DNA of 54,005 bases from a virus (Duplodnaviria > Caudoviricetes), in the IMG/VR virus record IMGVR_UViG_3300035135_002245, positions 1-54,005 of that record, one strand, 5' to 3'. The notes under the pieces are model-generated. The model searched no databases. It was not told the origin of the DNA and saw only the letters and a list, made by a program, of their open reading frames with translations. Shown piece after piece: positions 1 through 48,718 of the stretch. Both the position numbers and the translations under genes were made by a program. The first letter of the stretch is position 1; each line of letters begins with the position of its first letter.

Positions 1-360
1 GAAACTTATCGCTTCTTTCTCATATGGGTGAGATACATAATCATGACCCATATTGTAATATCTTTTGAACCAAGTTGGTGATTGTAAGTAGTGAATGTAT
101 TCGTGGATAAGAGTTTGAATAACCATCTTTCTACTTTTCATCTGAGGATAGTAAATACTAATCTCATTCAACATTGAACAATACTCAGCATGACAACTAT
201 CTTCATCACCACTAGAACCTTCAATTCCACTATATTTTTCGTAAATATTTCTGTGAGTTTCAACATAAGGAGTACATTCTTGGAACTTAGAAAATCCATA
301 ATGTTTCTCTATCTTAGGGAAAACTTCGTTGATTATTTCTTTAACTTTTGATTCTGTCAT
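1..360 (-). CDS. Zincin-like (HExxH) metallopeptidase, runs off the window end
   Basis: Not in the ORF track. Manual translation from ATG at 360: MTESKVKEIINEVFPKIEKHYG...LIHEYIHYLQ...HPYEKEAISF, giving HExxH plus a downstream Glu. A promoter motif lies directly upstream. Confidence 0.7.
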   Translation of the reverse strand, partial: MTESKVKEIINEVFPKIEKHYGFSKFQECTPYVETHRNIYEKYSGIEGSSGDEDSCHAEYCSMLNEISIYYPQMKSRKMVIQTLIHEYIHYLQSPTWFKRYYNMGHDYVSHPYEKEAISF

Positions 361-20479: not shown

Positions 20480-20996
20480 CGTCTTTTATTTCTTGGTTTA
20501 TAATATCTTTCTTTTCTTGTCTTGATTGACCTGGTTTGAAGTATTGTTTAAGAACATCCTTTTGTAAAAAAACTTCTGAAATATATGTTATTGAATCCAA
20601 AGTATATGTTCTATAATTTTTACTATAAACTTTTGGTGAACTTTTTAACAACTTGTAAACTTGCTTTCCATCATCTGTTTTAATGTTACCAAAGTTTTTT
20701 AATACTTCATCTAAATGAAGTGCATCATCAATACTTTTTCTTTTATCTTTTAACTTAGTTAAAAACGATAAAAACTCTCTAGGATGTACTGAATTTAATT
20801 TTACTCCATGAAGTTGATTAGCAACTGCACCAAATATAAAAACATATGATGCATTACCACCTGCTAAATTTTTTGATTTACCATCTGCATATTTGTACTG
20901 AGAAATCTTATATAAATTTCTCAATCTAATATTAGATTTACCTACTCTGTTTTCGTTTTCTATTATCTTTTTATATGCAAGAAATTGTGTATCCAT
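20466..20996 (-). CDS. Hypothetical protein (weak resemblance to T4 gp2-like DNA end-protector family)
   Basis: Basic 176 aa ORF with LHGVKLN and NYRTY patterns; the family call is tentative. Confidence 0.5.
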   Translation of the reverse strand: MDTQFLAYKKIIENENRVGKSNIRLRNLYKISQYKYADGKSKNLAGGNASYVFIFGAVANQLHGVKLNSVHPREFLSFLTKLKDKRKSIDDALHLDEVLKNFGNIKTDDGKQVYKLLKSSPKVYSKNYRTYTLDSITYISEVFLQKDVLKQYFKPGQSRQEKKDIINQEIKDDDID

Positions 20997-26302: not shown

Positions 26303-26314
26303 TGAGAGATATAT

Positions 26315-26381
26315 AAAAAAATGAAGGTGGGAAAGTACTTCAGACAGCAATGACTTTTTCCAAGACCCACCTTTATTTTTA
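26315..26381 (-). terminator. Long-loop hairpin with U-tract after the TonB receptor gene
   Basis: Minus strand aaaaataaaggtggg-(34 nt)-cccaccttcattttttt. Confidence 0.5.
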
Positions 26382-26389
26382 TAAGTAGT

Positions 26390-29095
26390 TTAGAATCTTA
26401 ATTTTAAAGAAGCATTCCATGTACGTCCGAATCCGAACCATACTGAGTTTCTTGTATCGATTCCATTCCAAGTCTGTGAACTTCCATCAGCGTGGATGTT
26501 AGAGTTAGACTCGGCAATATAGTAAGTATCAAATAGATTATTTACGTTAACTCTAAATGTACTCTTTGTTCCGAATAAATCAAAACTATAAGTTGCACCT
26601 AAATCTGTTAATCCATATGATGGTAGTTTTAGTGCACCTAAATTATCAGGTTGTGTAAACTCTGAATCAGTAATTGAGTAATCTGCGTACAGATTATCTA
26701 CAAATCTATATCCTAAATCTACACTAAGGTTTTTACCAACCTTGTAATCAGCTTCAACATAAGATGTGAATTGTGCAGCATCACCAACTTTCGCATCTTT
26801 CAAGTACAATGTACCTGTTCCGATTTGTTCGTTGTTATCATCAAATAAAGCTGCTTCAAAATCTTTAGTATATCTCCAATCACCAACTGATAACATACCT
26901 TTTAATCTCAAGTTAGATGTTGGGTCATAAGTTGCCTCAACTTCTAAACCATTATGTACAACATCGATATCTTTGAATTGTGCAAATCCATCAACACCTT
27001 GTTGGTTAGATAAACTTCTTGTTACAAATCTATTACCCCATGTTGTAGAGTATAAGTTTACATTTGCTCTGAAGTTATTACTAACGAATCCATATCCTAA
27101 TTCAACAGATGTAATTTCCTCATTTTGTAAATCAGGATTAACTGTGTTTGCATAGTTAGGGAATACTCCATCAAAGTTTGGTTGTCTTGAAATAAATCCA
27201 GCATTAAAGAACACATTGTGTGAATCATTAATGTTGTAGTTAGCACCACCTTTTACATATCCACCACCAACATTTTTAGTTTCTGATTCTGGATTATCAG
27301 GTTGTGCAAAGTAATCAATTCTTTGGAAAGATTGATTAGATAAACCACCTTGTAATACAGCAGATACGATAGAGTTGTTATATTCAACTAAACCATTAAC
27401 ACCTTGCCAACCAACTTTACCAATATTATAGTAAGCGATTTTCGGGCCTCTGATACCTGTATTTTGGAAAGGATTAGCATCAACTAAAGTGTTGATAATT
27501 TGTCCTGCAGAGTTATCATTACCAGTTGAGTAATAACCATCTAATCCAAGAAGGTCGTTTAATACTCTGTAATGGTATCCTGTGTAGTTTCTCAAATCAA
27601 CACCAATCGAAGTTTTCCAATCTCCACTTTCATATTCTAAGTTAGAGATTGCTCCAACCCAGTCATGAGAGTTCATAGATGCTCTTCTAATCAAAGCACT
27701 TCTGTTCACACCATCTTCATTGAATCCATTAGAACCAATTAACTGACCACCGAATGGTAAATCACCAGTGTATGGGTCTGTATTTGATTGGTTAAATGCA
27801 ACTACTGCATCAAAATCAATGAATCCTTCAGGAGTTCTTGAACCTCTACCATTTTCTAAGTAGTGTTCAGTTAAATCCTTTCTGAAAGGTAAGATATCAG
27901 TTTCAGAGTTGTAGTAGTTTCTACCTCTTGGACCAGTTCCCCCACCTCTACCTGCTGAACCATATAATGATGTAGCAAGTTTTAGGTTTGAGTTAATATC
28001 CCAATCCCAATTCAGAGTTGCTAATGGTTTGTTGTAGAAGTTTCTTCTTAACGAATACTCTTCTCCATTTAAAATACCACCATTGGTATTCCATCTTCTA
28101 TCGATTCCTTCTTCACCAAAGTTTTGGTAATCTCTAATAGAAACCCAAACATCTCTTTGGTGGTGCCATTGTCCAGCACCTAAGAAAGAAAAGTTAACTG
28201 AGTGGTCTGAATCTTCAGGTGCATATCCTAATGCAAAGAAGTAAGTGTAACCCTCACCACTTGTATTATAGATATATCCATCACCTGCCCACTTTGAAAG
28301 TAATACAGATGTTGCCCATCCATTTTCATTTAGACCAGTTGAGTGAGCAACAGTAGTTTTTGTGTAACCATCGTTACCAAATACTTGTTGTACTGAACTA
28401 CCCTCTCTAGCCTCAGCTGCTTTTGTAAAAATTGAAACAGTTCCACCTACTGATGGTACTGCCAATTTCGAAGCTCCTAAACCTCTCTGTAATTGGATAC
28501 CACTTGCAACGTCTGTAAGACCTTGCCAGTTAGACCAATAAACCCATCCATTTTCCATATCATTAACAGGTTGACCGTTAATTAGGAAAGATGTGTTTCT
28601 TTGGTCGAATCCTCTCAAAGAGATTCTTGAATCACCATAACCACCACCTTGTTTAGTAGCATAAACACCTGGTGTTTTGTTCATGATTTCTGGAAACTCT
28701 TGGTTTCCAACTTTAAGAGCAATTTCTCTTGGTGAAATCGTAGATACTGCTACAGGAGTTTCTCTCACTTTTGCAATATCGATTACACCGGAACTAACTA
28801 CTACTTCACCGAGTACATTCAAATCAGGTGTTAAACCTACATTTGTTTCTACACTTGCGGCTACTACTGCAGTTTCGTATCCTAAATAAGAAACAACAAG
28901 TGCTTCTCCTTCGCTAACATCTAAAGTAAACGTGCCATCAAAACCAGAGACCGTTCCATCGGATGTTCCTTCAATGATAATGGTTGCACCAGGCAGTGCA
29001 TCACCAGTTTCACTGTCAAATACTTTCCCACTAATTTGTGCAAAAGTAGTGATACTTGTTAAAAGCATCATTCCAACTAATAATAGTTTTCTCAT
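26390..29095 (-). CDS. TonB-dependent receptor, Bacteroidota type (CarboxypepD_reg-like N-domain, plug, barrel)
   Basis: Signal peptide; ISGKVFD...LPGATI; LGEVVV TonB-box region; plug motifs TPGVY, ISLRGF, LINGQP; ends GRTWNASLKLRF. Confidence 0.93.
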   Translation of the reverse strand: MRKLLLVGMMLLTSITTFAQISGKVFDSETGDALPGATIIIEGTSDGTVSGFDGTFTLDVSEGEALVVSYLGYETAVVAASVETNVGLTPDLNVLGEVVVSSGVIDIAKVRETPVAVSTISPREIALKVGNQEFPEIMNKTPGVYATKQGGGYGDSRISLRGFDQRNTSFLINGQPVNDMENGWVYWSNWQGLTDVASGIQLQRGLGASKLAVPSVGGTVSIFTKAAEAREGSSVQQVFGNDGYTKTTVAHSTGLNENGWATSVLLSKWAGDGYIYNTSGEGYTYFFALGYAPEDSDHSVNFSFLGAGQWHHQRDVWVSIRDYQNFGEEGIDRRWNTNGGILNGEEYSLRRNFYNKPLATLNWDWDINSNLKLATSLYGSAGRGGGTGPRGRNYYNSETDILPFRKDLTEHYLENGRGSRTPEGFIDFDAVVAFNQSNTDPYTGDLPFGGQLIGSNGFNEDGVNRSALIRRASMNSHDWVGAISNLEYESGDWKTSIGVDLRNYTGYHYRVLNDLLGLDGYYSTGNDNSAGQIINTLVDANPFQNTGIRGPKIAYYNIGKVGWQGVNGLVEYNNSIVSAVLQGGLSNQSFQRIDYFAQPDNPESETKNVGGGYVKGGANYNINDSHNVFFNAGFISRQPNFDGVFPNYANTVNPDLQNEEITSVELGYGFVSNNFRANVNLYSTTWGNRFVTRSLSNQQGVDGFAQFKDIDVVHNGLEVEATYDPTSNLRLKGMLSVGDWRYTKDFEAALFDDNNEQIGTGTLYLKDAKVGDAAQFTSYVEADYKVGKNLSVDLGYRFVDNLYADYSITDSEFTQPDNLGALKLPSYGLTDLGATYSFDLFGTKSTFRVNVNNLFDTYYIAESNSNIHADGSSQTWNGIDTRNSVWFGFGRTWNASLKLRF

Positions 29096-29182: not shown

Positions 29183-29632
29183 TTATATTTTAAGTTTTAA
29201 TTTTGTTATTTGTTTTTTATCTACTCCGTATTTTTCACAGATGTATTTTATATTTTCTCTTCCCTCTCTTGTTGCATAAAGTATTTCACAGTACTCTTCT
29301 GCCTGTAGTTTAGATACTTGAAAATCTTGTTTAATAATATCCACTAGAAACTCTTCGTATTTGTTTACTTTTTTTCCTTTGACATATTTTAGATAGTATC
29401 TACCTTTTGGTATGATATTAATCAAAGCCAAATAATATTGTTTTGGACTTAATCTTTCGGTATATGGTTGTAAATCTGCTATGGTTGTAATCCAATCTGG
29501 ATTCATGGATAAGAATCTTTGTACCATGTAATTACTCCATGTTTTCTTATCACCATCTTCAAGTTTATCCCAATAGTTTGGGTCTTGAAATTGTGTAACT
29601 GCTTTTATGTGGTCAAATAAACTTTTTGCCAT
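29183..29632 (-). CDS. Clamp loader small subunit (T4 gp62-like)
   Basis: SLFDHIKA, YMVQRFLSM and IIPKGRYYLKYVK patterns; located near the clamp loader ATPase. Confidence 0.7.
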   Translation of the reverse strand: MAKSLFDHIKAVTQFQDPNYWDKLEDGDKKTWSNYMVQRFLSMNPDWITTIADLQPYTERLSPKQYYLALINIIPKGRYYLKYVKGKKVNKYEEFLVDIIKQDFQVSKLQAEEYCEILYATREGRENIKYICEKYGVDKKQITKLKLKI

Positions 29633-30194
29633 CTGTAAATAATTCTTTTATTCTTTCTTTAAAATTAATATACCCTTTCTTAGCATTTTCTTCCCATTTT
29701 GATGAATCACCATCATCACTTATCCACTTGAATGAGTATAATAGTTTGTTATAACGAGAACAAACTTGTGCAATAGAATATAATTCCATATCAACAATAT
29801 CACACTTCTTAATCATCTCTAAGTATTTCTCAGCATAATCTGTTCTATGTTTATCGTAAAATTGGTCTGTTGAAAAACATTTGATATCTGATTTACCTTG
29901 AAGAGTTATGGCACCCAATCCATGAAAAGGGGTGTATCCATATTCAGCAAAAGGTCTTACATCTATATTATTGTAGACCTTACCAACTGTAAGTACTTCT
30001 CCTATCTTATGATTTTGTAGATTACCACAAGAACCGAAATTAATTACATGGGATGGATTATATTTCTCAATCAATCGTGTTGTATTCATAGCAGCATTTA
30101 TTTTACCAACTCCTATGATGTGAATCTCACTTCCAAATATTTCTAGCTCTTGATGTTCTAACTCAGTTGCAGATAAAAATAAATACTTACTCAT
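29613..30194 (-). CDS. mtnN: MTA/SAH nucleosidase (PNP_UDP_1 family)
   Basis: GVGKINAA, INFGSCG, TDQF, VDME and KWISD motifs. Confidence 0.8.
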   Translation of the reverse strand: MSKYLFLSATELEHQELEIFGSEIHIIGVGKINAAMNTTRLIEKYNPSHVINFGSCGNLQNHKIGEVLTVGKVYNNIDVRPFAEYGYTPFHGLGAITLQGKSDIKCFSTDQFYDKHRTDYAEKYLEMIKKCDIVDMELYSIAQVCSRYNKLLYSFKWISDDGDSSKWEENAKKGYINFKERIKELFTDGKKFI

Positions 30195-30681
30195 ATGAAA
30201 TTAAACTTTTGACATCATAACCTTCGTAAAGACCTATATCTAACAAACATAATTTATCGGTAACTTCTAATCCATGTAGTTTACATAAATCTTCTGCTGC
30301 AGTAATTGTACCGCCTGTTGCAAGTACATCATCTACAATTACACAAGTTCCTAAATCATGTTGTGGAATATATGCCATTTCCAATTCATCCTTACCATAC
30401 TCTAATCCATACTTTACTGAAAATAATCTACTGTTTGGTAATTTACCTTTTTTACGAATCATCCTAATACCACCACCAAAGTGAAATGCAAGTGCAGATG
30501 CGAATATAAATCCTCGTGATTCAATCCCAACCCAATAGTTTGGAATTTCAACAAGGTCACCCATATCTTTTATTGCTGATTCGAAGGCAACTGTATTTGC
30601 CATTAGTGGTTGAATATCTTTGTACTGAATACCTTTGATTGGAAAATCAGGTATGTTTTCAATATACTCTTTGTAGTCCAT
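30187..30681 (-). CDS. apt: Adenine phosphoribosyltransferase
   Basis: PDFPIKGIQYKDI, GIESRGF, RKKGKLP, YGLEYG and IVDDVLATGGT motifs. Confidence 0.93.
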   Translation of the reverse strand: MDYKEYIENIPDFPIKGIQYKDIQPLMANTVAFESAIKDMGDLVEIPNYWVGIESRGFIFASALAFHFGGGIRMIRKKGKLPNSRLFSVKYGLEYGKDELEMAYIPQHDLGTCVIVDDVLATGGTITAAEDLCKLHGLEVTDKLCLLDIGLYEGYDVKSLISYE

Positions 30682-32081: not shown

Positions 32082-33710
32082 TTATTTTTTATGGAACACG
32101 AAAATCGGTTCGAATTTATATTGTTTACCATTATGTTCTACTGAATTTTTAATACCACTTTTAGATGGGTCTAATCCAACCATTCGTGTCATTAACATTT
32201 TCAGTTTACCTTTATATTCACAACCCAAATCTTTTAAGATATCAATAGAATCTTGTTCTAATGGATAATAAACTGATTTACCAATCTTGATATCAGCAAT
32301 ATTCCAAAGAATATATCTATCCTTCTTTAAATATTCGTATATAGTTGTTAGCGTAGGTTTTAAGAAGTTATCTCTCCAATCCTCATACTCACCATAGGCT
32401 TTGAACGATTGGTTCTCATCTTGTGAATATTGTTCTCTGTTAAAGTATGGTGGTGAAGTAAATGCAATATCTAATTTACCTTTATACTTTTGGAACTTTG
32501 GATTGTTTTGAATCAACTCCGAACCATCTTGAAATAGTTCGTAAGTATTACCTTGTTTTTCTACATTAAAAAATGATGTAAGTTTATCTGAGAAATCATC
32601 TACACAATTATCATTGTAAAACTTAGCAACATATTCATAACGAGAAATACCTAATTCATCCAAGAAGTTATCTGGATTAGGGTCTGTACCAACATAGTGA
32701 ACTTTCTTACGAGAACTCATAGCTCCGATGATTCTACCACCCCAACCACTTGATGAATCATAAATATGTAATGGTTCATCAGTATCAATGTGATTAGTAT
32801 AGTTTTCGTAAATCCACTTTGCAGTTAGTGCAGGAAAGTTTACTGCTGGTTGTCCACAACTCAATCTGAACACTTGTAATATCTTAGGAAAGATACCATC
32901 TGTTTTATCATACCAACGAATAAGGTATTTGTATTCTGTAACTGTTCCTGCTTCTGAGGTTGTTGATTCAACAATATCACCAAGATTTGATATTTGTGTT
33001 TTATCTAAGTAACCTGTTGCAACTAAACCATTTACTTCTGCAGCATCTAAATATAGATTTCCAAATCCTTGATATTGTTCATTGAATGTTCCATAGTTTT
33101 TTAATGTGGATGTTTTAACTTTTGCAAGTACGATACCTAAATCTTTATACTTTCCTTTAAAAACTTTTCCATCGTGAACATCTTTGATAAATTCAGAACC
33201 ACTCTGTCCATCCCAAAAAGGATTCTCATCTTTTTTATCTACGATTGAACGAGACCAAGAGTACATAGAATCTCTTTTAACTGCTCGTTTCATAATACGA
33301 ACAAACTTATCTTCTAACTCTGGGTCTGAAAAATGGTCGTAGATAGATAATCCACCTTCTGCAGATTTACCACTTGAAATCTTTGTTTTTAACATTGTAG
33401 GAAAAAACTGATTTACAACTGATGCATCTTTGTTAAAGTTTTGGATGATACCCAATGATTCTTCATCACCAGTTTTATCTTTTACCCAATACTTCGCAGG
33501 ATTTGATTTTAGTTTCTTAAATGATTTTACGATACCTTTTTCATCTTTACCAATGACAGGTGGAGTTCCTCTTTCATCCCATTGTTCAGTTACTTCTTTA
33601 CGAAGTAAACGAGCCCATGCTACGAACTCATCATCAGTCATTTGTAATAACTTATGATAAGACGTATTTGACTCGAACTCTGAAAATTTACTCCTTTCGT
33701 AAAAGTGCAT
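32082..33710 (-). CDS. Amino (N4-C/N6-A) DNA methyltransferase-like protein, SPPY type
   Basis: Motif I DSSSGWGGR, motif IV FTSPPYF and C-terminal EPIFVF. Confidence 0.8.
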   Translation of the reverse strand: MHFYERSKFSEFESNTSYHKLLQMTDDEFVAWARLLRKEVTEQWDERGTPPVIGKDEKGIVKSFKKLKSNPAKYWVKDKTGDEESLGIIQNFNKDASVVNQFFPTMLKTKISSGKSAEGGLSIYDHFSDPELEDKFVRIMKRAVKRDSMYSWSRSIVDKKDENPFWDGQSGSEFIKDVHDGKVFKGKYKDLGIVLAKVKTSTLKNYGTFNEQYQGFGNLYLDAAEVNGLVATGYLDKTQISNLGDIVESTTSEAGTVTEYKYLIRWYDKTDGIFPKILQVFRLSCGQPAVNFPALTAKWIYENYTNHIDTDEPLHIYDSSSGWGGRIIGAMSSRKKVHYVGTDPNPDNFLDELGISRYEYVAKFYNDNCVDDFSDKLTSFFNVEKQGNTYELFQDGSELIQNNPKFQKYKGKLDIAFTSPPYFNREQYSQDENQSFKAYGEYEDWRDNFLKPTLTTIYEYLKKDRYILWNIADIKIGKSVYYPLEQDSIDILKDLGCEYKGKLKMLMTRMVGLDPSKSGIKNSVEHNGKQYKFEPIFVFHKK

Positions 33711-36997: not shown

Positions 36998-38467
36998 CTA
37001 TTCTTCGTTATTATTTTCTACTGAAGTATCTTCAATTTCTTTATGTTCTTCAATGTGACATTCTCTGTGAAGAACAACCATTTTCTTAACATCTAAACCA
37101 CCATGTTTAGCGTACTCTTCGATGTGATGAACATCATCATGAATACCAACATCTTTACCACATCTTCTACATTTGTGGTTAGTATTATCAAGAACATCAA
37201 TTCTTTCACTCCATTTAACATTTCTATCTTTAGTTCTAATTGAAAGACCAAACTCTTCTTCAAACTTGGTGAATCCTTCTTGAGTTGCCCCACCCATTTC
37301 TGAAAGTTTTATATCAAGGTAAAAATTTAAATTATCGATAAGTTCAGAAGTGAACTCGGAGTTCTGTGTCTTTTGTTCAAAATCCCATTTGTTACCTCTA
37401 ATGGTTAAAACCTTACCCATTCTCTTTCTTACTCCTACATACATATCATACACAAACGAATTAAATTTTTCGTAATCTGTAATTAAGATTTCATTCTCAC
37501 TTCTTATGTCATGTAACCAATGAATCAGTAATCTGATTTTACCCCAATTATAAGAACCTTTTCTGTTAACAGGTATGTTCTTTACAAACTTTTCAATAAT
37601 TGTAATATAATTTTTAAATTCAGTACTAACACTATCAGTATAATCTGACATCTTATCTCTCATCTTCTTGTTTATCTTTCCAATAACTCCATTTGATTGG
37701 TAAAGTTGAATATAAAGATTAAGAACTAATTCACTTGGTTTGAATCTCATATTATCGATTCCTAACTTTTCCCAAGTATCTTTCATAGAGGTGTTAATAT
37801 CTCTTAAATAATCAAATAGTTTAGTACCATATGAAAGTAAAATTTCAATGGCCTTCAATGGTGTTTGACCAACATTTAAATTTCTAAACCATCTTCTAAT
37901 ATATCCTTCATCACCTTCAATGAAAACTACATTCAATGTTCTTTTCTGTAAAAGTTGTTGAACCAATACTTCACCATTTGGTTCTTTTTTCAAATCTTCG
38001 TAACTCATTCCACTTGCATCATACCAAGTACCCTCTACAAGACCAGGAATGATTGTACCAGTTGGTAAAACAAACAACCCCTTTATCCAATTACCCATAG
38101 ATGTTAATCGTTGTTGACCATCTACAGCTTCAAAGATTTGTTTTAATCTTTGAATAGCCAAGTACAATGGGTCATGAAGTTCTCCCATCAACATGGCTTT
38201 AACAATTTGTTGTTGTTGTGATATTGTTTTTACAAATAATCTTTGGAATCTTTTAGGAATTGTAATAAATCCCCAAAGTAATGTGAAGTTTTCAAGTGAT
38301 TTACTGAAATCATCTTTATCAGTTCCAAAAAATATATTCCAAAGAGATATTTTCCTATCCTTTGGTTCGTGTGTACTTTCAGGTACAACATTACACCTTT
38401 TATCCCTTCGGATACCATTGACCACTTCGGCCTGTTGTTCTGGTGTTAAACTTAATAATGAATTCAT
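36998..38467 (-). CDS. DUF262-HNH fusion (GmrSD-like nuclease)
   Basis: VDGQQRLT and FRNLN..TPL (DUF262); C-terminal CRRC...DVHHI...GG...VLHRECH (HNH). Confidence 0.8.
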   Translation of the reverse strand: MNSLLSLTPEQQAEVVNGIRRDKRCNVVPESTHEPKDRKISLWNIFFGTDKDDFSKSLENFTLLWGFITIPKRFQRLFVKTISQQQQIVKAMLMGELHDPLYLAIQRLKQIFEAVDGQQRLTSMGNWIKGLFVLPTGTIIPGLVEGTWYDASGMSYEDLKKEPNGEVLVQQLLQKRTLNVVFIEGDEGYIRRWFRNLNVGQTPLKAIEILLSYGTKLFDYLRDINTSMKDTWEKLGIDNMRFKPSELVLNLYIQLYQSNGVIGKINKKMRDKMSDYTDSVSTEFKNYITIIEKFVKNIPVNRKGSYNWGKIRLLIHWLHDIRSENEILITDYEKFNSFVYDMYVGVRKRMGKVLTIRGNKWDFEQKTQNSEFTSELIDNLNFYLDIKLSEMGGATQEGFTKFEEEFGLSIRTKDRNVKWSERIDVLDNTNHKCRRCGKDVGIHDDVHHIEEYAKHGGLDVKKMVVLHRECHIEEHKEIEDTSVENNNEE

Positions 38468-38915: not shown

Positions 38916-39086
38916 TTATTTTACACTTTTTTTGCAACTTTTTTTATGAAAAAATAACCCCCCACATTTACATTTTACATAGTAAACTGTTGATGCTATT
39001 ATTGGTGAAGATGCCATTGCTGTCCAAACATTAGGATGCCAATGTTCTCCACAAAATCCAAATATATGTTTTATAAATTCTATCAT
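38916..39086 (-). CDS. 56 aa Cys/His-containing hypothetical protein
   Basis: Manual translation MIEFIKHIFGFCGEHWHPNVWTAMASSPIIASTVYYVKCKCGGLFFHKKSCKKSVK*; ATGA overlap with the upstream methyltransferase stop. Confidence 0.6.
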   Translation of the reverse strand: MIEFIKHIFGFCGEHWHPNVWTAMASSPIIASTVYYVKCKCGGLFFHKKSCKKSVK

Positions 39087-40324
39087 TTTTCAAATATCCA
39101 AATTGGTTCTGCGAATGTTTTATCTTTTGTTTCCTCTGATAACTTTAACACTTCTTCAGAGTATTGTTTTTCGTTTGATTCAGTTTGTTTTACAGTTCCT
39201 GCTCCACCACTATTAGGACGTTTTGCCATTTCCATTCCTATTGCACCTCTGTATTTTAATCCTTTATGTATTAAAAAATCACACATAGGATTTGTAATCT
39301 CTTTCCATGTTTTACCACCTTTACCAGCAGTATAAACATCTGATATATTTATTGCAATCAAACCACCTTTCTTAACTGTTGGTATGATTTTATTTAGTGA
39401 TTTATGTAAAAAATATCTATTCCATCCATCTATATCTTTATATCGTATCCAACTCTGAGTATCATCGTGTGAGTATCTTTCAACATTAAAATAAGGTGGT
39501 GATGTAAATACTAAATCGAAATAATCATCGTATTTAGAATAATCAAAATCTTCAGCAGGTGAACAATAGAAATCAGTTTTAGTTGGTGATTCAAAGAAAG
39601 TAGTATGTTTTTCGTAAAAATCTCTTTGTTGTTCATAGATAGGATGATTCTCTTTACGAGGGTCTAAACCTACATAGTGTTCAATAGTTTCTGAAGCAAA
39701 GGCTCCACTTAATCTATCGCCCCAGCCCATACTGAAGTCAAGCATTGTCTTACTACCAAAATACTCAGTTAAACATTTAGTGACGTTGGGCTTGTGTTGA
39801 GATGCGATATATTTACGAAGTGATATCATCAAACGTAATTCTGATTTACCTATCTTATCAAACTTCAATGAATAAGCAGCACCCATCAATGTTTTCATAA
39901 ATGCTGGTGTTTCCCATGTCCTCTTTGGGCCTGGATAACCACTTGAACATATTGACCATCTGTTTGCTTCTTGATGTTTATTACTAGAAAGATTACCTAC
40001 ATTGTATCTTTTGAAATATAAAGGAGTACCATCAAATGTAAGTGGATATTTTGTTTCAGTTGCTTGTCTCATGAACCATTCACCTTCCTTGAGAAGCTCA
40101 TTCCAGCGAATTCCTTTTAATTTTCCATAATCTTTTACAACATCTTCCCACTCCCATTTATCAGTAGCGTAAGGTAATGGCCAAGATGCAGCTACTTCGG
40201 CAAGAGACTCTTTCACCACATCTTGTTCATATTTACCCTTGATTAATTCCCATTCTTCATTCTCAATGAGAAAGTAATCACCTTTGTAATTTTCTCTTTT
40301 ATATTTCTCTAGTTCTTTTATCAT
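39083..40324 (-). CDS. Amino (N4-C/N6-A) DNA methyltransferase-like protein, SPPY type
   Basis: DFSMGWGDR, FTSPPYF and EPIWIF motifs; paralogous to 32082..33710. Confidence 0.82.
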   Translation of the reverse strand: MIKELEKYKRENYKGDYFLIENEEWELIKGKYEQDVVKESLAEVAASWPLPYATDKWEWEDVVKDYGKLKGIRWNELLKEGEWFMRQATETKYPLTFDGTPLYFKRYNVGNLSSNKHQEANRWSICSSGYPGPKRTWETPAFMKTLMGAAYSLKFDKIGKSELRLMISLRKYIASQHKPNVTKCLTEYFGSKTMLDFSMGWGDRLSGAFASETIEHYVGLDPRKENHPIYEQQRDFYEKHTTFFESPTKTDFYCSPAEDFDYSKYDDYFDLVFTSPPYFNVERYSHDDTQSWIRYKDIDGWNRYFLHKSLNKIIPTVKKGGLIAINISDVYTAGKGGKTWKEITNPMCDFLIHKGLKYRGAIGMEMAKRPNSGGAGTVKQTESNEKQYSEEVLKLSEETKDKTFAEPIWIFEK

Positions 40325-41950
<1,626 letters not shown>

Positions 41951-42793
41951 TTAATTTAAATTTAGTGATTTTTTGTACGAACCACCGATGTTCCAAAATA
42001 AAATCTTTCCATCTAGTGACTCTATATTTTCTTCTAACCAATACCACATCTTTTTATCCCAAAATTCGTTACAATCAAATGGAACAGAATAATCTTCCAT
42101 AAAATCATTGAATTCAAATGGGGATTTATAAATGTTAATATTGTTTAAATCTCCTGCTTTGTTTTCATTTAGAATCTTTTTTGTAGATTCTATTGATGAC
42201 ATCGTAATAGTGTGAACTTTTCTTCTGTTATTAAGTAAATCTTTCCAATCTGTATATTGTAAAAATTCTTTTATTAAACCAGAAGCAGTTACCCCACTAC
42301 CGATTGATACAACAAGATGGTCGAAATCTTCTTCTTCCAAAACTTGTTTCATCCTACTCTTCATGTAATCTACATAAGCAGGATGATTAAAAGCATACGG
42401 TAATTGTTGCCAACCATTCTTTTTTGCGATACCACCAAGTTTATTCTCAAGTAGTTTCATCATGTTTGGTTTCATCGGATTTAAAGTTGCACCATTACCT
42501 TTGATTATTTCTAATATCTGAGGTGGATATGTTTTAGAATTTGGATATGATGATATAAATTCAATACCATAATCCTTACACATCCTAGATAATGTCCAAC
42601 CAGTCCAACTTCCATATACTGAAAGATGTGTTAGTGGTTTTGATTTATCAATATAATCAGATTCTATAATCTTTCTTATACCTTCAATCTTTGCCCATCG
42701 AGGATAATTTATACCATCCCCAACTAAATCATCTCGTTTGACATGAACTGTCTTTCCTTTTAGTTTATATTCTTCTATCGGAGTTAGAACCAT
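41951..42793 (-). CDS. PLP-dependent fold-type II enzyme (ACC deaminase / D-cysteine desulfhydrase-like)
   Basis: VHVKRDDL...WAK (PLP lysine region), VVSIGSGVTASGL phosphate loop and ILFWNIGG. Confidence 0.8.
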   Translation of the reverse strand: MVLTPIEEYKLKGKTVHVKRDDLVGDGINYPRWAKIEGIRKIIESDYIDKSKPLTHLSVYGSWTGWTLSRMCKDYGIEFISSYPNSKTYPPQILEIIKGNGATLNPMKPNMMKLLENKLGGIAKKNGWQQLPYAFNHPAYVDYMKSRMKQVLEEEDFDHLVVSIGSGVTASGLIKEFLQYTDWKDLLNNRRKVHTITMSSIESTKKILNENKAGDLNNINIYKSPFEFNDFMEDYSVPFDCNEFWDKKMWYWLEENIESLDGKILFWNIGGSYKKSLNLN

Positions 42794-43710
42794 TCGTGTT
42801 GTACTTCGTTTTTAATTTTATTGTAATGAGATATAAGTTGTTTCTTTTCAACTCCAAAGATTTCACAATGAAGTGTATTTATATCTCCTTTTTCTTTTTT
42901 AGTATGAAAGTTAGATTTGTTTTTTGCATTACCAAATCTCTCAAACTCATCTTTAAATAATACATCAGTTACAAACCACTTTTTCTTTTCTTTCATTTTA
43001 TCATCTTCAAATTTGAAATTAGTTTGTTCATAATTTACATTCTGAAAATGTTTGTAGATACTTTCTGTCTGTAATGGTGTATCTAAAGTAATTCCATATG
43101 AATTAATATATTTTCTAATTGATACATGATTATGTACATTACCATTAAAGTTTTTATCTTCATAACACATTCTACGATGGTCATTATAATGTTTATCAAA
43201 ATCTTCTCTTGTAACAACACCCTTTAACATATCTCTATACTTGATACTAAGTTTGGCGTTTGTTTCATATATAACATCCTCATATAATCCCGCAACTAAA
43301 TGTTTGGTTGAAATATGTTGTAACATATACCAATATGCATAACAACATTGAATATCTATTTTTCTTGATATTCCAATTCTATCGATACCATCTTTTATTA
43401 TTTTAGATGCACTTTCTTTATTTATTTTAGGTATGTTTACAATTTCTAATGGAATACCATATCCTTTTGCAATCTTACGAGAATAGATTAAATCATTTGT
43501 ATCGTAATCTTCTACTTGAAATGTAAGTAACTGAGATGGCTTCTTACCTAATTCCATCAGACCATATAATAACATAGATGAATCTATACCAGCAGAAAAT
43601 GATAATGAATAATCATCTGGTATTTCTGATAATCTATCTAATAAAAGTTCTTTAAAATCCCATGCCCATTTCGGATTGGGGTCAAACTTAAATGATTCGT
43701 GTACTCTCAT
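42784..43710 (-). CDS. PP-loop (N-type ATP pyrophosphatase) protein, asparagine-synthetase C-domain-like, with no glutaminase domain
   Basis: LSFSAGIDSS PP-loop; D...SRKIA..YGIP; GLYED in place of GEGADE; 308 aa. Confidence 0.75.
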   Translation of the reverse strand: MRVHESFKFDPNPKWAWDFKELLLDRLSEIPDDYSLSFSAGIDSSMLLYGLMELGKKPSQLLTFQVEDYDTNDLIYSRKIAKGYGIPLEIVNIPKINKESASKIIKDGIDRIGISRKIDIQCCYAYWYMLQHISTKHLVAGLYEDVIYETNAKLSIKYRDMLKGVVTREDFDKHYNDHRRMCYEDKNFNGNVHNHVSIRKYINSYGITLDTPLQTESIYKHFQNVNYEQTNFKFEDDKMKEKKKWFVTDVLFKDEFERFGNAKNKSNFHTKKEKGDINTLHCEIFGVEKKQLISHYNKIKNEVQHEWF

Positions 43711-44405
43711 TTACCTAATACTTCTAATAACTTGATAGTTTTCTTTTTTTCATTATCCATATCACCGATATGACATGAACAAGCAAGTGTAGTTACTTTC
43801 CCTAATTCTAATCCACTTTGTTCAGCAAGGAAGTGTCCCATCTCTGTTAATGCAGTATAATCTGCGTAACCACTTTTAGATACTCTATTTGAACGAAGTA
43901 CTGATGTTAGGTATAATTTACCATCTCTTGGTTTTAAATCAATCATACACATACAAGGTTGTGAATAGGGATTCCTTGCATCTTTTGTAGGGTCAAAGAT
44001 AATAAGTTCACATCTTTTTACAGCCTGTCCTTTACTTAAAATCTTAATTACATTTTCAACTTGATTGAATTCACCCTTCCAAGATACCATTCTACCCCAA
44101 TAAGATTGATACCAATGGTCTTTAATATATTTGTAATCCAAACCTTCTTCTTCTTCAAAGAATGGATTATCTGATTTCTTTTCTTCTGGTTTAAGGAATG
44201 TAACAGTTTTGGCAAAATCAATTCTATCATCACCCATCACTTCTCTGAAGTGTCCATCAAACCAATCATCTGATTTGAATTCTGTGATTTCAGTTACTAC
44301 ATTGAGTTCTTCTGTTAGATTACCAACCTTAACACCATGTTCTAATAAATGTTTTGATACTTTCACCCAGGCATCTCCTGGCGATGTTGCCTCTATAACT
44401 GTCAT
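43707..44405 (-). CDS. Thymidylate synthase / dCMP hydroxymethylase superfamily protein (atypical)
   Basis: NQVENVI..L, R...IIFDP..D, catalytic PC, GKL.LT..LRSN and SCHI. Start set at ATG 44405 (ATGA overlap). Confidence 0.8.
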   Translation of the reverse strand: MTVIEATSPGDAWVKVSKHLLEHGVKVGNLTEELNVVTEITEFKSDDWFDGHFREVMGDDRIDFAKTVTFLKPEEKKSDNPFFEEEEGLDYKYIKDHWYQSYWGRMVSWKGEFNQVENVIKILSKGQAVKRCELIIFDPTKDARNPYSQPCMCMIDLKPRDGKLYLTSVLRSNRVSKSGYADYTALTEMGHFLAEQSGLELGKVTTLACSCHIGDMDNEKKKTIKLLEVLGK

Positions 44406-44602
44406 ATATGTGTCCAAGTTTTTCGTTTAACAATTTCTTCTACGTTCCAAGTAGATACTTTGAAATTACGAGCTATGATATTAGTAGAGAAACCCTTAGA
44501 ATAGAGTTCTCTTATTTGTCTCACTTGTTGAGATGTGAGTTTTGCTCTTGGATGAGATTCACCTCGTAACCTATTAGAGAAAAACCATAAGCTTTTCACC
44601 AT
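44402..44602 (-). CDS. Stand-alone HTH protein resembling the C-terminal DNA-binding tail of HNH homing endonucleases
   Basis: RGESHPRAKLTSQQVRQIR...IARNFKVS...IVKRKTW; no HNH core. Confidence 0.7.
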   Translation of the reverse strand: MVKSLWFFSNRLRGESHPRAKLTSQQVRQIRELYSKGFSTNIIARNFKVSTWNVEEIVKRKTWTHI

Positions 44603-46721: not shown

Positions 46722-47141
46722 TTATATTAATTTTATTTGTGAAGAGTTTCCATAATTACCGAAAATTTCTTCGTTTATTTTTATATCTTTTATTGCTATA
46801 CCTGTTTTACTATCAATACTTCCTTCTTCAAATTGTGTATTTAATAAACACAATGGGTCTGAAAATAAAAAATTACAATCCTTCGTTAATTTGAAATTAA
46901 TTTCAGAATTATCGTTAACTATATTATTCCCATAAGAACGAAGTACATATGATAATACTTCTTTAGGTAACTGTTTGGCTTCACCAAACTTTATTTTGTA
47001 CCAACCAGTTTCTCCTTTCCATGTTGGAAAAACTTGTTCTCCTTTTTTTATATCAACCAAAGCAAATAATCCAACTCCATGAACACTGCTTGTTCTTTGA
47101 TAACTTTTAACTGAAGTATTTAAATAATCAAATGGGTTCAT
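46722..47141 (-). CDS. SET-domain protein
   Basis: SSVHGVGLFALVDIKKGE and AIKDIKINEEIFGNYG; the NHS motif is degenerate (LLNTQ). Confidence 0.8.
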   Translation of the reverse strand: MNPFDYLNTSVKSYQRTSSVHGVGLFALVDIKKGEQVFPTWKGETGWYKIKFGEAKQLPKEVLSYVLRSYGNNIVNDNSEINFKLTKDCNFLFSDPLCLLNTQFEEGSIDSKTGIAIKDIKINEEIFGNYGNSSQIKLI

Positions 47142-47718
47142 GTATTACATTTTTTTGAAATACACCATCTATAAAATAACTCCAATTACAATTATGTGTT
47201 TGTTCAATTACTTTTGGATAGTGTTCTCTATGAGGAGAATCTATCTTGAATTGAAAAGAATGTAAATCACTAGTATCTCTTAATACGAAATAACTAAAAA
47301 TTGATAATACACAATTTTCATTTGAGATTAGTTTTGCGTAATCTTCAAATTTAGAATAGTTAGGGTCATCATAAGTATCTAAAAAAATACCATCAAACTT
47401 AACATCTAACGTTGGGATTACATCTATCCAATCTCCAAAATATAAATGAACATTATCTTTACCTTCAGCCCATTTCTGTGCTTCGTTAAAGATTTGTGGA
47501 TTTGTTTCTATACAATGATAATTACCAACCTTGTTATAGATTGCATCAGCACTATATCCTAATCCAAATCCAACATCTAATACTTTTCCACCATTTTGTG
47601 TAACAATATTAGAGTAAAATTCCATCAATTGTTTGGACACTACATCCATAACAATTTTAGAATCATCATCTGAATACGATATCCTCGTATCTGTTATTGT
47701 AACCTTTTTGTTTTTCAA
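47128..47718 (-). CDS. Class I methyltransferase, RMT2/guanidinoacetate-methyltransferase-like
   Basis: GGKVLDVGFGLGYSA, HCIETNP, GDWIDV and FDGIFLDTY. Start tentatively set at TTG 47718, just after the nrdB stop. Confidence 0.75.
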   Translation of the reverse strand: MKNKKVTITDTRISYSDDDSKIVMDVVSKQLMEFYSNIVTQNGGKVLDVGFGLGYSADAIYNKVGNYHCIETNPQIFNEAQKWAEGKDNVHLYFGDWIDVIPTLDVKFDGIFLDTYDDPNYSKFEDYAKLISNENCVLSIFSYFVLRDTSDLHSFQFKIDSPHREHYPKVIEQTHNCNWSYFIDGVFQKNVIHEPI

Positions 47719-47722
47719 ATTT

Positions 47723-48718
47723 TTAAAATAAATCGTCCCAATCCTCACCCTCGTTTGCCTTAGAATAATCAGTAGGTCTAATAGCAAAGAAATCTGTGTG
47801 AGTGTGTCCGCCTGTAAGATGATAGAACCATTCTAAATTTTCTGATTTCTTTTTATTGTAATCAAAAATTGATTCGTATCCTAATTCTTTTAACTTGGTG
47901 TTTGTTCTTTCTTTGATGAATTCTTTTAAATCATCTGCTTTCAGATTTTCTAAATCTCCCATCTCGAACATTTTATCAATAAATTTAGTTTCGAGTTCTA
48001 CAATTAATTTTGCAGCTTCCTCGATAGAATCTTTACATTGTTCTTGTAGTTCAGGATATTCTTCACACATATGTCTGAATAATTGACATCCCATTCTACT
48101 ATGAAGTGATTCATCTCTTACACTCCATTTCATTTGTTGTCCGATTCCTTTTAGTTTGTTTCTCATTTGGAACGAATAAAGAACAGCAAAGGAAGAGTAG
48201 AGAGATACTCCTTCAGCAAATGCTGAAAAAATTGCTAAACTTCTACCTACTTCCTGTCTTGCTTTTTCGTTCTTTTGTAAATCTTCGTGTGTCCAATCTG
48301 CCGAAGTTTGAGTAAGTAATTCAAATTTTTCTGCAACCGCAGGTTCATGTAGAAATGCTGAGAAATCATCCAACCCTAAAGTTTCATTTAAATAAGAATA
48401 TGCTGTTGCATGAATGGTTTCTTGTGAACCAAACATCATAGCCATTTGTCTAATTTCATGTTTGGGAAACCAATCAGTAACCATGTTAGTCCAATAATCA
48501 GATACTGCACATTCTGTTTGTGCAAATCCTAATAGGATGTTACCAACTAAATTCTTTTCTGACTCTGTTAGGGTTTCGTTCCAATCTTTAACATCCCCTT
48601 GCATTGGAATTTCAGTATGTAACCAAAATGCCTGTGCCTGTTTTAACCAACCTTCGTTGTAATAAATTGGATATTCGAATGGTTTGAACGGTACTCGTTC
48701 TGTGAATAATTTGCTCAT
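47723..48718 (-). CDS. nrdB: Ribonucleotide reductase class Ia beta subunit
   Basis: FW..EI, ETIHATAY, EGVSLYSSF, RDESLH and TDFF motifs. Confidence 0.95.
   Translation of the reverse strand: MSKLFTERVPFKPFEYPIYYNEGWLKQAQAFWLHTEIPMQGDVKDWNETLTESEKNLVGNILLGFAQTECAVSDYWTNMVTDWFPKHEIRQMAMMFGSQETIHATAYSYLNETLGLDDFSAFLHEPAVAEKFELLTQTSADWTHEDLQKNEKARQEVGRSLAIFSAFAEGVSLYSSFAVLYSFQMRNKLKGIGQQMKWSVRDESLHSRMGCQLFRHMCEEYPELQEQCKDSIEEAAKLIVELETKFIDKMFEMGDLENLKADDLKEFIKERTNTKLKELGYESIFDYNKKKSENLEWFYHLTGGHTHTDFFAIRPTDYSKANEGEDWDDLF

Follow-up and report, generated by a model that had tools for sequence, protein, structure and literature searches.

The window, by which we mean the whole stretch of 54,005 nucleotides that was analysed, carries on one strand a gene for a thymidylate synthase (TS)-like protein together with genes for an amide ligase, a PLP enzyme and two SPPY-motif methyltransferase-like proteins (Table 1). 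The TS-like ORF was listed as 43707..44417(-), with a TTG start and 236 aa. An in-frame ATG at 44405 yields instead a protein of 232 aa, which is the length of nearly all homologue clusters (120 listed), and the sequence MTVIE, with which the TS-like proteins of the relatives begin, fits this second start. Homologue lengths, the shared start and the profile matches given below establish that the TS homologue placed here by the first-pass annotation is a real ORF encoding a protein of the TS fold. The ligase gene shares 4 bases with the TS-like gene, at the stop of the latter. At 12–23 kb, 20 kb away from the cassette, the window also contains GT2, GT1 and GT4 genes and genes for a UDP-glucose dehydrogenase, an epimerase and a nucleotidyltransferase.

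Table 1. Genes of the cassette and active-site segments of the TS-like protein
Feature	Position	Strand	Remarks
TS-like enzyme	43707..44405	-	232 aa; TS fold, Cys-dependent, probably cytosine-type, remodelled cofactor pocket
PP-loop ATP-dependent amide ligase, CmoY type	42784..43710	-	308 aa; no glutaminase domain
Fold-type II PLP enzyme	41951..42793	-	280 aa; homologue of phage M6 gp52 decarboxylase
SPPY-motif amino-methyltransferase-like protein	39083..40324	-	413 aa; PF01555 1.7e-6
Second SPPY methyltransferase-like protein	32082..33710	-	542 aa; PF01555 1.4e-6
P150-C151-M152 = E. coli P145-C146-H147	43950..43958	-	Catalytic cysteine; P150 and C151 invariant in alignments A1 and A2
R171-S-N-R174-V-S-K177-S-G-Y-A-D182 (RSNRVSKSGYAD) = E. 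coli R166..N177	43860..43895	-	
H212-I-G214 (HIG) = E. coli H207-L-Y209	43764..43772	-	His retained, 3'-OH Tyr gone

The TS-like protein matched the Pfam family PF00303 at 28.7 bits (cut-off 24.3). Its best sequence-family match was the methanogen-type TS model TIGR03283, which covered the full length (residues 4–219 vs 3–199 of 201; 3.4e-22) at 79 bits, below the cut-off of 174.55, while the canonical ThyA equivalog models were missed (TIGR03284, 18.9 vs 108.35 bits; NF002497, 17.1 vs 327). An Atlas search returned the TS family assignment again and nothing further. When the AF2 model (pLDDT 91) was compared by VIA with known structures, AfhB came first (9iqu, Z 20.7, rmsd 2.4, 194 aligned; 9iqc, Z 20.3), tied with MilA (Z 20.2); the best PDB profile match had an E-value of 7.2e-9. 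Thymidylate synthesis in the phage is not the task of this protein; all five complete relatives have, besides it, a true ThyA or ThyX (ThyA in three, at about 300 bits or more, and ThyX in two). The nearest TS homologues in cultured phages are at most 29% identical, and a 10-kb piece of the window had no megablast match among 50,697 phage records. The clade to which the protein belongs is virus-restricted, with a single match in a genome collection of 185,579 species, and is found in genomes of 220–375 kb; one of its 90% clusters comprises 334 member sequences on 111 contigs. A SusC-like gene suggests that the hosts belong to the Bacteroidota. A literature search found no paper on the TS-like enzyme or its cassette.

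The active site was located by hhalign of the clade profile (A2) against an alignment (A3) of E. coli ThyA, T4 gp42 and 22 archaeal-type relatives (probability 100, E 1.6e-40, 207 columns), in which query residues 134–213 and E. coli residues 130–208 are aligned without gaps. In this register C151, R171, S172, N173 and R174 correspond to C146, R166, S167, C168 and D169 of E. coli, K177 to L172, D182 to N177, H212 to H207, G214 to Y209, Y102 to Y94 and K130/R131 to R126/R127. Cys146, Arg166, Ser167 and His207 are thus kept, and Asn177 is changed to Asp, Asp169 to Arg and Tyr209 to Gly. HMMER alignments to MilA and HY126 AfhB have no gaps between the PC and the H, MAFFT places the R (+0), D (+3) and N/D (+11) in one column each in E. 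coli, T4 and the 22 archaeal-type relatives, and the VIA structural ranges agree with the register (model 10..230 vs E. coli chain 1..223 of 1nce_A). Alignment by hhalign to E. coli ThyA alone (probability 78) had put a Gly under N177 by opening a gap of +3 followed by one of -3. This three-residue shift disappears with the richer profile, and as HMMER and MAFFT do not show it either, we treat it as an artefact; with T4 gp42 alone, the clade profile gave a probability of only 2. The strings quoted in the first-pass annotation were all found in the sequence (PCM, RSNRVSKSGYAD and HIG; Table 1), and its reference strings, QRSCDVFLGLPFN...THLY for E. coli ThyA and MRSNDVVFGFRND...LHVY for T4 gp42, agree with the database records. 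Its manual register, with Asp at 177, Arg at 169 and Gly at 209, is borne out by the profile-profile and structural alignments, and the rewired active site is confirmed.

C151, R171 and S172 are invariant in the clade, as is SKSGY.D in the second active-site segment, where Arg stands in place of the folate Asp169 and Asp in place of Asn177 (E. coli numbering). N168, R169, SKSGYA, D177 and G209 recur in 119 of the 120 close clusters listed, the 120th being a fragment of 187 aa. Among 13 representatives (50% identity, E<1e-30), D177 is universal and position 169 is never Asp or Asn (nine R, four A); Y209 is absent from all 11 that could be parsed at that position. The 90 more distant relatives parsed keep D169 in 80 cases and Y209 in 62 (23 unparsed at 209), and their commonest residue at 177 is N (51/90), followed by D (36/90).

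The neighbouring genes relate the cassette to known DNA modification systems. In the ligase the SGGIDS motif (PP-loop SGGxDS) is conserved; its family alignment (A4) matched Synechococcus phage S-B43 CmoY by hhalign (probability 99.3, E 4.6e-20, 233 of 271 columns), and its fold resembles those of carbapenam synthetase, asparagine synthetase and the beta-lactam synthetase C-domain (TMq 0.62–0.64). It is a clear CmoY homologue, and activity on DNA bases is predicted for it. The PLP gene matched M6 in tblastn (28% identity, 95% coverage, E 8e-19); aligned end to end by MAFFT, the enzyme is 30% identical to gp52, with Lys35 under the PLP lysine of gp52, Lys36, and both proteins share the C-terminal motif PFPCN..W.WL..FWN.G. 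According to PMC8989533, gp52 of phage M6 is a decarboxylase of amino-acid-modified bases in DNA. A profile match of the PLP enzyme to gp52 (E 1.2e-64) was discarded as circular, as the alignment used (A5) includes gp52 and a misplaced row from locus L044; the stretch L044:6757-7611, taken for a PLP gene, encodes a PP-loop protein according to the alignment. PDB sequence searches with the 413-aa methyltransferase-like protein, the ligase and the PLP enzyme gave nothing useful.

Linkage was tallied over 79 unique loci, which are not independent, many being near-identical contigs; 59 of them have at least 2.6 kb on both flanks. A ligase gene is present in 58 of these 59, in a long, AsnB-type form in 45 and a short PP-loop form in 13; a PLP gene is present in 55, the remaining four having a radical SAM gene, and in 52 a homologue of the 413-aa SPPY protein is encoded no more than 6 kb from the TS-like gene. 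Gene order in the cassette is kept down to 41% TS identity. In other lineages, genes for counterparts of the 542-aa protein are next to the TS-like gene on its upstream side, and SPPY homologues of 539–546 aa abut it in loci L069 and L080. The cassette lies in the replication module, between ribonucleotide reductase and DNA polymerase, with DNA-methylase-like genes alongside. The radical SAM genes of the clade are class-B-like, not photolyase-like, and the long ligase, at 284 bits, exceeds the NCBIfam equivalog threshold of 267 bits for true asparagine synthase. Arg or Ala at position 169 showed no correlation with the type of partner (long or short ligase, PLP or radical SAM), with the exception of R-S-Q-R in five loci that have radical SAM without PLP, probably a lineage effect. 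Fusions of the TS-like protein to radical SAM (P0128) and to AsnB (L041) were also observed.

The clade-invariant Asp177 suggests that the substrate is a cytosine nucleotide, as the first-pass annotation had proposed. Indeed, N177D gives dCMP preference (PMC13326640), and position 165, which is Gln in ThyA, is a hydrophobic Leu here and Met in T4 gp42, MilA and AfhB. Cytosine specificity is accordingly a likely prediction. The further suggestion that loss of Tyr209 points to a 3'-substituted substrate, or to DNA itself, is weak. Position 209 is unconstrained across the clade (G, R, K, A, H, S, F, T), and the dCMP hydroxylase AfhB has Phe there and was nevertheless crystallised with dCMP (title of PDB 9iqu), so that the missing Tyr is poor evidence for a DNA substrate. 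Nor do isoelectric points give a consistent DNA-binding signal: the value is 5.6 for the window's protein (ThyA, 5.6; gp42, 5.8), and within the clade it varies between 5.6 and 9.8 without a steady basic surface.

If the enzyme worked together with the ligase and the PLP enzyme on cytosines that are part of DNA already, this would be in keeping with both partner families, which act on polymeric DNA (PMC12783734; PMC8989533). A deletion removes R21 and R127' lacks conservation, which leaves fewer phosphate-binding arginines; the loss of Y209 and the TS-AsnB fusion point the same way. In the five complete relatives, moreover, searches of low sensitivity detected neither a T4 gp1-like dNMP kinase (0/5, single-sequence search) nor Tmk (0/5), and MazG was present in three and dUTPase in one, with no consistent dCTPase, a pattern that does not fit nucleotide-level replacement in the style of T4. 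We know of no TS-fold enzyme that acts on DNA, however, and this alternative appears unlikely: the enzyme keeps R166 and S167, as would suit a 5'-phosphate, the protein of the window has an acidic pI, the clade has no consistent basic surface, AfhB binds dCMP without a Tyr hydroxyl, and the kinase searches were insensitive.

As for the second substrate, several features of the pocket make a co-substrate other than folate likely. Of the 12 residues within 6 A of dUMP C5 listed in PMC13326640, only Y94, C146 and S167 are unchanged in the hhalign map. L172, G173 and F176 are replaced by an invariant K-S..A; the W83 region is missing, and so is the C-terminal lid, since the model stops at about E. 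coli residue 223–225. The D169N flavin-dependent dCMP hydroxylases provide a precedent for a TS homologue that dispenses with folate (PMC13326640). The earlier idea of a co-substrate other than methylene-tetrahydrofolate therefore gains support on wider grounds than those on which it was put forward. Two refinements of it did not hold. An anionic co-substrate contacting Arg169 is not favoured, because Ala replaces this residue in sister lineages with the same ligase and PLP genes, so that Arg169 is not the key residue. Similarly, a co-substrate supplied by the neighbouring enzymes is not supported; these are homologues of the DNA-base tailoring enzymes SpCmoY and M6 gp52 and thus resemble downstream DNA-tailoring enzymes, not enzymes of small-molecule biosynthesis.

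An ordinary dCMP hydroxymethylase or methylase, dependent on folate or another pterin and with a pocket that merely drifted, would represent the default for the TS superfamily. It would be consistent with the retained catalytic Cys, Tyr94, Arg166 and His207, with an acidic pair, D59/E60, that aligns at or beside E58 of E. coli, and with the methanogen-type relatives, in which the C-terminal lid is likewise missing; a ternary complex of E. coli D169C in the PDB (1nce) implies, furthermore, that Asp169 is not absolutely required for binding. On the other hand, D169 is missing in 13/13 clade representatives and kept in 80/90 parsed outgroup relatives, the hydrophobic L172/G173/F176 have given way to K-S..A, the W83 region and lid are absent, and a hydroxymethyl or methyl handle would offer the ligase no carboxylate. 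We therefore hold this explanation to be improbable.

Alternatively, the protein may be a flavin-dependent dCMP 5-hydroxylase like HY126 AfhB, RB69 gp48 and DLP3 gp80, whose product, 5-hydroxycytosine, would then be glycosylated by the glycosyltransferases of the window. The best structural matches (9iqu and 9iqc), the best PDB profile match, the presence of D177, the loss of D169 and the lack of a Tyr hydroxyl at 209 (Phe in AfhB) would agree with this, as would the glycosyltransferase and sugar-nucleotide genes. We give it little credence, however. The published diagnostic is D169N (PMC13326640), and the clade has R or A at this position and N in none of the 13 representatives. MilA is tied with AfhB in the structural comparison, and the clade is nearest to methanogen-type TS by sequence and hence a lineage separate from AfhB. 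Finally, a hydroxyl handle would leave the obligatory amide ligase and PLP decarboxylase unexplained.

The reading that we prefer, although its chances of being right and of being wrong seem to us about equal, is that a phage pathway for cytosine hypermodification, hitherto uncharacterised, begins with the TS-like enzyme, which would make the handle. The protein retains the set of residues for covalent catalysis (Cys146, Tyr94, Arg166, Ser167, His207 and a Lys at 126'), and its gene is tightly linked to genes for an amide ligase of the CmoY/AsnB type and a PLP enzyme of the gp52 type. Neither CmoA nor a C5-methyltransferase (CmoX) was found in any of the five complete relatives, which leaves the TS-like enzyme as the only candidate for C5 activation of the ligase's substrate. 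The M6 ORF just upstream of the PLP gene, which from gene order we take to be gp51, also found no counterpart in these five genomes when used as a single-sequence query of low sensitivity.

In the proposed pathway Cys151 would add to C6 of a cytosine nucleotide, most simply dCMP, and the resulting C5 carbanion would attack an electrophile other than methylene-tetrahydrofolate, which need not be a flavin species either. This electrophile may be held in a polar pocket with the invariant Lys177 and Tyr180 and the clade-specific FR..G..RID motif, and the side chain at C5 of the product would contain either a carboxylate or an amino-acid moiety. Once the product is part of the DNA, the carboxylate might be turned into an amide by the ligase, much as CmoY amidates 5-carboxymethylcytosine in DNA (PMC12783734), with ammonia or an amine for the short ligase of the window and glutamine-derived ammonia for the long form of sister phages. 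The PLP enzyme would take off an alpha-carboxylate, and the SPPY methyltransferase-like proteins could add further decoration. Several points weigh against the scheme: a side chain with a single carboxylate would make the ligase and the decarboxylase rivals for it, the long ligase, being above the asparagine synthase cut-off, could be metabolic, the kinase, MazG and dUTPase results for the five complete relatives do not fit a T4-style replacement of nucleotides, and the best structural neighbour of the TS-like model is a flavin hydroxylase. A bolder version, in which a TS fold without folate or flavin forms a new C5 carbon-carbon or carbon-heteroatom bond with a carboxyl- or amino-acid-bearing electrophile, possibly on DNA, is conceivable but rather doubtful. 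It is very improbable that the product of the cassette is a modified nucleotide or nucleoside in free form (comparable to the role of MilA in mildiomycin synthesis) or that its target is RNA, with the long ligase as an auxiliary asparagine synthase. MilA, tied as top structural match, does work on CMP in antibiotic biosynthesis and the long ligase does pass the asparagine synthase cut-off. Against this stand the position of the cassette, with ribonucleotide reductase on one side and DNA polymerase on the other, the DNA-methylase-like genes around it, the similarity of its ligase and PLP genes, which is closest to phage enzymes that act on DNA, and the restriction of the clade to viruses.

The possible role of the TS-like enzyme in cytosine hypermodification bears on a wider question. 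TS-family enzymes supply the precursors for most of the hypermodified pyrimidines known from phage DNA, and all of these enzymes, to our knowledge, were thought until 2025 to use folate. In the flavin-dependent dCMP hydroxylases a single residue change at position 169 marks a switch of cofactor and chemistry (PMC13326640), and at this same residue the clade described here has diverged independently, as a second case. Its members are abundant and tightly linked to tailoring enzymes from two different known pathways. If it indeed works without folate or flavin, the handle that the enzyme provides would lead to a hypermodified cytosine with an amide or amine group, widespread among large phages of aquatic habitats. 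Its product, once worked out, would be a new cytosine modification and probably represent a new TS reaction type; it would also yield a sequence signature for predicting restriction- and CRISPR-resistant DNA in metagenomic phages.

Among characterised members of the fold, MilA of Streptomyces (PDB 5b6d/5jnh) and T4 gp42 are cytosine-type enzymes with Asp177 and a hydrophobic residue at 165, as in the clade, and MilA is the tied top match in both structure and sequence. Both enzymes, however, keep Asp169 and Tyr209 and use methylene-tetrahydrofolate, where the TS-like protein has R174 and G214, and both carry Asp or Glu at position 143 (PMC13326640) in place of its Ser (S148). Methanogen-type TS (TIGR03283) has the same short architecture without the C-terminal lid, but it expects D169 and N177 where R174 and D182 are found, and the score is 79 vs 174.55 bits. 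The flavin-dependent 5-hydroxy-dCMP synthases (AfhB, RB69 gp48 and DLP3 gp80; PMC13326640) are likewise short phage proteins of the TS fold, of about 230–240 aa, and share with the clade the catalytic Cys, Asp177 and the absence of both Asp169 and a Tyr hydroxyl at 209. They differ in the diagnostic Asn169, as opposed to Arg or Ala, in sequence (about 20% identity) and in their partners, which are glycosyltransferases and a dNMP kinase and not an amide ligase and a PLP enzyme.

With regard to the pathway as a whole, the CmoA/CmoX/CmoY system of S-B43 (PMC12783734) offers a close parallel, in that a Cys-dependent enzyme installs on cytosine, at C5, a handle which an ATP ligase resembling asparagine synthetase goes on to amidate, the products being 5-carboxymethylcytosine and its glycine amide. 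Ligases with and without a glutaminase domain occur in both cases (PMC12783734). The C5 enzyme of S-B43, in contrast, has a C5-methyltransferase fold and uses carboxy-SAM on DNA (PMC12783734), whereas here a TS fold would take this part and a PLP enzyme is added. The thymidine hypermodification of M6 and Salmonella phage ViI (PMC8989533) resembles the proposed pathway in other respects: the precursor comes from a member of the TS family, a base-attached amino acid in DNA is tailored by a PLP enzyme of the gp52 type, and a radical SAM gene is optional. Those phages begin with 5-hydroxymethyl-dU and depend on a 5-hmU DNA kinase as well as an aGPT-Pplase transferase (PMC8989533), whereas the base modified here would be cytosine.

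The active site of the thymidylate synthase (TS)-like protein is rewired at the positions named in the first-pass annotation, and the register behind this observation is backed by HMMER, MAFFT, hhalign and structural alignment. The strings that annotation had quoted for E. coli ThyA and T4 gp42 agree with the annotated records. The HMMER alignments of the segment with MilA and with AfhB of phage HY126 are gapless, and a MAFFT alignment of the E. coli and T4 sequences with 22 short relatives of archaeal type left Arg (+0), Asp (+3) and Asn/Asp (+11) matched throughout. A profile of the clade, that is, the virus-restricted relatives of the protein, matched this MAFFT alignment with an hhalign probability of 100 (E 1.6e-40), gapless over query residues 134 to 213. 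A dissenting register, obtained when hhalign was run against the single E. coli sequence (probability 78; compensating +3/-3 gaps in the helix after 172), disappeared with the richer profile. The structural aligner superposed residues 10..230 of the model on residues 1..223 of the E. coli chain, in agreement with this register. The residue map (query = E. coli ThyA) reads C151=C146, R171=R166, S172=S167, N173=C168, R174=D169, K177=L172, D182=N177, H212=H207, G214=Y209, Y102=Y94 and K130/R131=R126/R127. The ThyA residue D169 makes contact with the pterin, while the 3'-OH is held by H207 together with Y209. Of 120 close clusters, 119 agree at the rewired positions, and the 120th is a fragment. 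Among 13 clade representatives (50% identity, E<1e-30), all have Asp177 and none Asp169 (Arg in nine, Ala in four), and Tyr209 is found in none of the 11 parsed by pattern. In contrast, of the 90 more distant relatives parsed from that search, 80 kept Asp169 and 62 kept Tyr209 (in 23, position 209 was unparsed). A derived active site is therefore common to the clade.

The protein lies only slightly over the Pfam threshold for thymidylate synthase (28.7 vs 24.3 bits), and its best curated family, the methanogen-type small TS TIGR03283, matches over the full length (3.4e-22) with 79 bits, far under the 174.55-bit cut-off. AF2 gave a confident model (pLDDT 91, pTM 0.89), whose top structures by Foldseek and VIA-align are effectively tied: two entries for the flavin-dependent dCMP hydroxylase AfhB of phage HY126 (9iqu: Z 20.7, rmsd 2.4, 194 aligned; 9iqc: Z 20.3) and one for MilA, a CMP hydroxymethylase (Z 20.2), canonical TS reaching at most Z 18.3. 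The residues of covalent catalysis are retained; position 165 is Leu, as compared with Met in the cytosine enzymes T4 gp42, MilA and AfhB and Gln in ThyA. PMC13326640 lists 12 residues within 6 Å of dUMP C5, of which only Y94, C146 and S167 are unchanged. Nine are replaced (W80->F, A142->Y, L143->S, H147->M, Q165->L, C168->N, D169->R, G173->S and N177->D). A five-residue deletion takes in R21, the TS-like protein has no counterpart of the inserted W83 segment, and the C-terminal lid is missing because the protein stops near E. coli residue 223-225. The gene is not the phage's thymidylate synthase: five relatives (records 93-100% complete) carry it together with canonical ThyA (three genomes, ~300 bits or more) or ThyX (two genomes).

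The genetic context was compared over 78 unique related loci and the window, with TS-like proteins 97% down to 41% identical; the tally is restricted to those flanked by 2.6 kb or more in each direction, 59 in all, and the loci are not independent, many being near-identical. An ATP-dependent ligase gene adjoins the TS-like gene in 58 of the 59, in 45 cases coding for an asparagine-synthetase-like protein of 501-579 aa that carries a glutaminase domain at its N-terminus and in 13 for a PP-loop protein of ~300 aa. A gene for a PLP enzyme is present in 55 loci, the remaining four having a class-B-like radical SAM gene instead, and at least one SPPY methyltransferase-like gene in 52. Partnerless loci number four among all 79, each interrupted by a contig end. 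Either ligase type occurs at the same position in phages with 92-97% identical TS-like proteins (the window as against loci L004 and L006-L010), and the two types, short CmoY-like and 501-aa glutaminase-bearing AsnB-like, are homologous over the PP-loop region only (62 columns). The pattern suggests that non-orthologous ligases were exchanged recently at a single point in the pathway, which may alter the amine that is attached. The TS-like domain is fused to radical SAM in the related protein P0128 (676 aa) and, without its last helix, to an AsnB-like domain lacking the glutaminase N-terminal catalytic Cys in L041/L061 (6004-8115, 710 aa); the latter may be genuine or may be an artefact of assembly or of deletion. 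Essentially all members of the clade are viral, a collection of 185,579 prokaryote species having given one match, on a metagenome-assembled contig bearing the same cassette. In phages of 150-375 kb (L086-L091, e.g. L086 2390-9587), the genes for the TS-like protein, the ligase and the PLP enzyme are flanked by several tandem SPPY methyltransferase-like paralogues, with four full-length ORFs each in L086 and L088; the higher counts in L087 and L091 take in short fragment hits. In L027 (4766-5938), a P-loop (GSSGSGKST) can be made out by eye in a 390-aa ORF between the methyltransferase-like and TS-like genes, as can an acetyltransferase-like motif at its C-terminus.

The window record (IMG/VR, 54,005 bases, completeness estimate 29%) has a GC content of ~31% and essentially every gene on the minus strand. 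The TS-like gene is embedded in a replication and nucleotide-metabolism module, in which genes for a gp32-like protein, RecA, FEN and DnaB, and for ribonucleotide reductase beta, a methyltransferase, a SET-domain protein, ribonucleotide reductase alpha, thioredoxin and a small HTH protein, lie on one side of the TS-like, ligase and PLP genes, and those for GroEL, a 413-aa SPPY methyltransferase-like protein, two small ORFs, a GmrSD_N-HNH protein and family B DNA polymerase on the other. A length of 232 aa is common to nearly all 120 listed homologue clusters and matches the assigned ATG start. The SET-domain protein and class I methyltransferase occur in some close relatives only. GmrSD-type enzymes cleave modified DNA, and a phage copy beside a modification cassette is notable. 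The phage codes for GroES plus a GroEL-like protein, and GroEL also lies within the cassette neighbourhood of L015, L018 and L027. The adjacent MTA/SAH nucleosidase and adenine phosphoribosyltransferase genes form a salvage pair for SAM by-products, as would suit a phage whose methyltransferase-like and radical SAM genes consume much SAM; the window's twitch-domain radical SAM protein is unrelated to the class-B-like one of other cassettes. The sugar block could glycosylate DNA, virions or the host surface, and the SusC-like receptor, an unusual auxiliary gene for a phage, hints at a Bacteroidota host.

Features of the window
Feature	Position	Strand	Remarks
NDP-sugar/glycosyltransferase block	12420-23649	-	epimerase/dehydratase, HAD-nucleotidyltransferase fusion, GT2, GT1, GT4, UDP-glucose dehydrogenase domains, methyltransferase
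GroES (Cpn10)	15838-16140	-	9.7e-26
Twitch-domain radical SAM protein	24959-26350	-	NF033640, 8.4e-93, over cut-off
TonB-dependent receptor, SusC-like	26390-29095	-	901 aa; CarboxypepD_reg + Plug domains
MTA/SAH nucleosidase	29613-30194	-	8.7e-21; beside clamp loader
Adenine phosphoribosyltransferase	30187-30681	-	2.4e-44, over cut-off; adjacent to nucleosidase
GmrSD_N (DUF262) + HNH protein	36998-38467	-	489 aa; between DNA polymerase gene and cassette side genes
GroEL-like protein	40325-41944	-	full-length, 539 aa; named by eye from translation
PLP enzyme	41951-42793	-	280 aa
PP-loop protein (ligase)	42784-43710	-	308 aa
TS-like gene	43707-44405	-	ATG at 44405; 232 aa
HIG	43764-43772	-	string quoted in first-pass annotation, in place
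RSNRVSKSGYAD	43860-43895	-	string quoted in first-pass annotation, in place
PCM (catalytic-Cys string)	43950-43958	-	string quoted in first-pass annotation, in place
SET-domain protein + class I methyltransferase	46722-47787	-	139 and 219 aa; between ribonucleotide reductase subunit genes

We conclude that the TS-like protein is probably the member of the TS superfamily that makes the precursor in a pathway for hypermodifying phage DNA. A full-text literature search returned no description of the clade or the cassette, although the ligase clusters and metavirome contigs of PMC12783734 and PMC8989533 could include relatives of these genes. PMC13326640 names D169N only. In the most economical reading, Cys151 would activate C5 of a cytosine nucleotide, which would be joined to a non-folate electrophile within a pocket turned polar (invariant K177 and Y180; clade-specific FR..G..RID motif, residues 53-63); the product would be a handle bearing a carboxyl or amino acid, which the ligase would amidate and the PLP enzyme trim. 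The sequence evidence concerns the first half of these four steps only; the electrophile, the product and the step order we infer.

The earlier interpretation stands in part: a cytosine substrate and a non-folate co-substrate are both likely. Arg169 cannot serve as the essential anchor of the co-substrate, as Ala takes its place in lineages that have these partners too (L064-L066, L085-L091), and the co-substrate-making role given to the neighbouring enzymes is unsupported. Action on DNA itself, also proposed there, appears doubtful. The gene content of the five complete relatives speaks against a T4-style nucleotide route and leaves room for a DNA substrate, in that none yielded a T4 gp1-like dNMP kinase (single-sequence search, low sensitivity) or a member of the Tmk family, MazG being present in three and dUTPase in one. 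However, R166 and S167 are still present, the window protein is acidic (pI 5.6), and AfhB, with Phe at 209, nonetheless binds dCMP.

The neighbouring enzymes of the proposed cytosine pathway have homologues in two phage systems. The window ligase retains an SGGIDS motif, has the fold of the C-domain of asparagine, carbapenam and beta-lactam synthetases (TMq 0.62-0.64) and, on profile comparison by hhalign (probability 99.3, E 4.6e-20, 233 columns), is clearly homologous to CmoY of Synechococcus phage S-B43. According to PMC12783734, CmoY acts on 5-carboxymethylcytosine in DNA, adenylating its carboxylate and ligating glycine, and a second, glutaminase domain-bearing ligase cluster is predicted to use ammonia. 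The PLP enzyme is homologous end to end to gp52 of phage M6 (E 8e-19, 28% identity, 95% coverage), its K35 aligning with K36, the proposed PLP lysine, and a C-terminal motif being held in common; gp52 decarboxylates C-alpha-glycinylthymidine in DNA (PMC8989533). In S-B43, however, the substrate of CmoY is provided by CmoA and a C5-methyltransferase, neither of which was found in any of the five complete relatives, and the TS-like enzyme is therefore the sole candidate for C5 activation in them.
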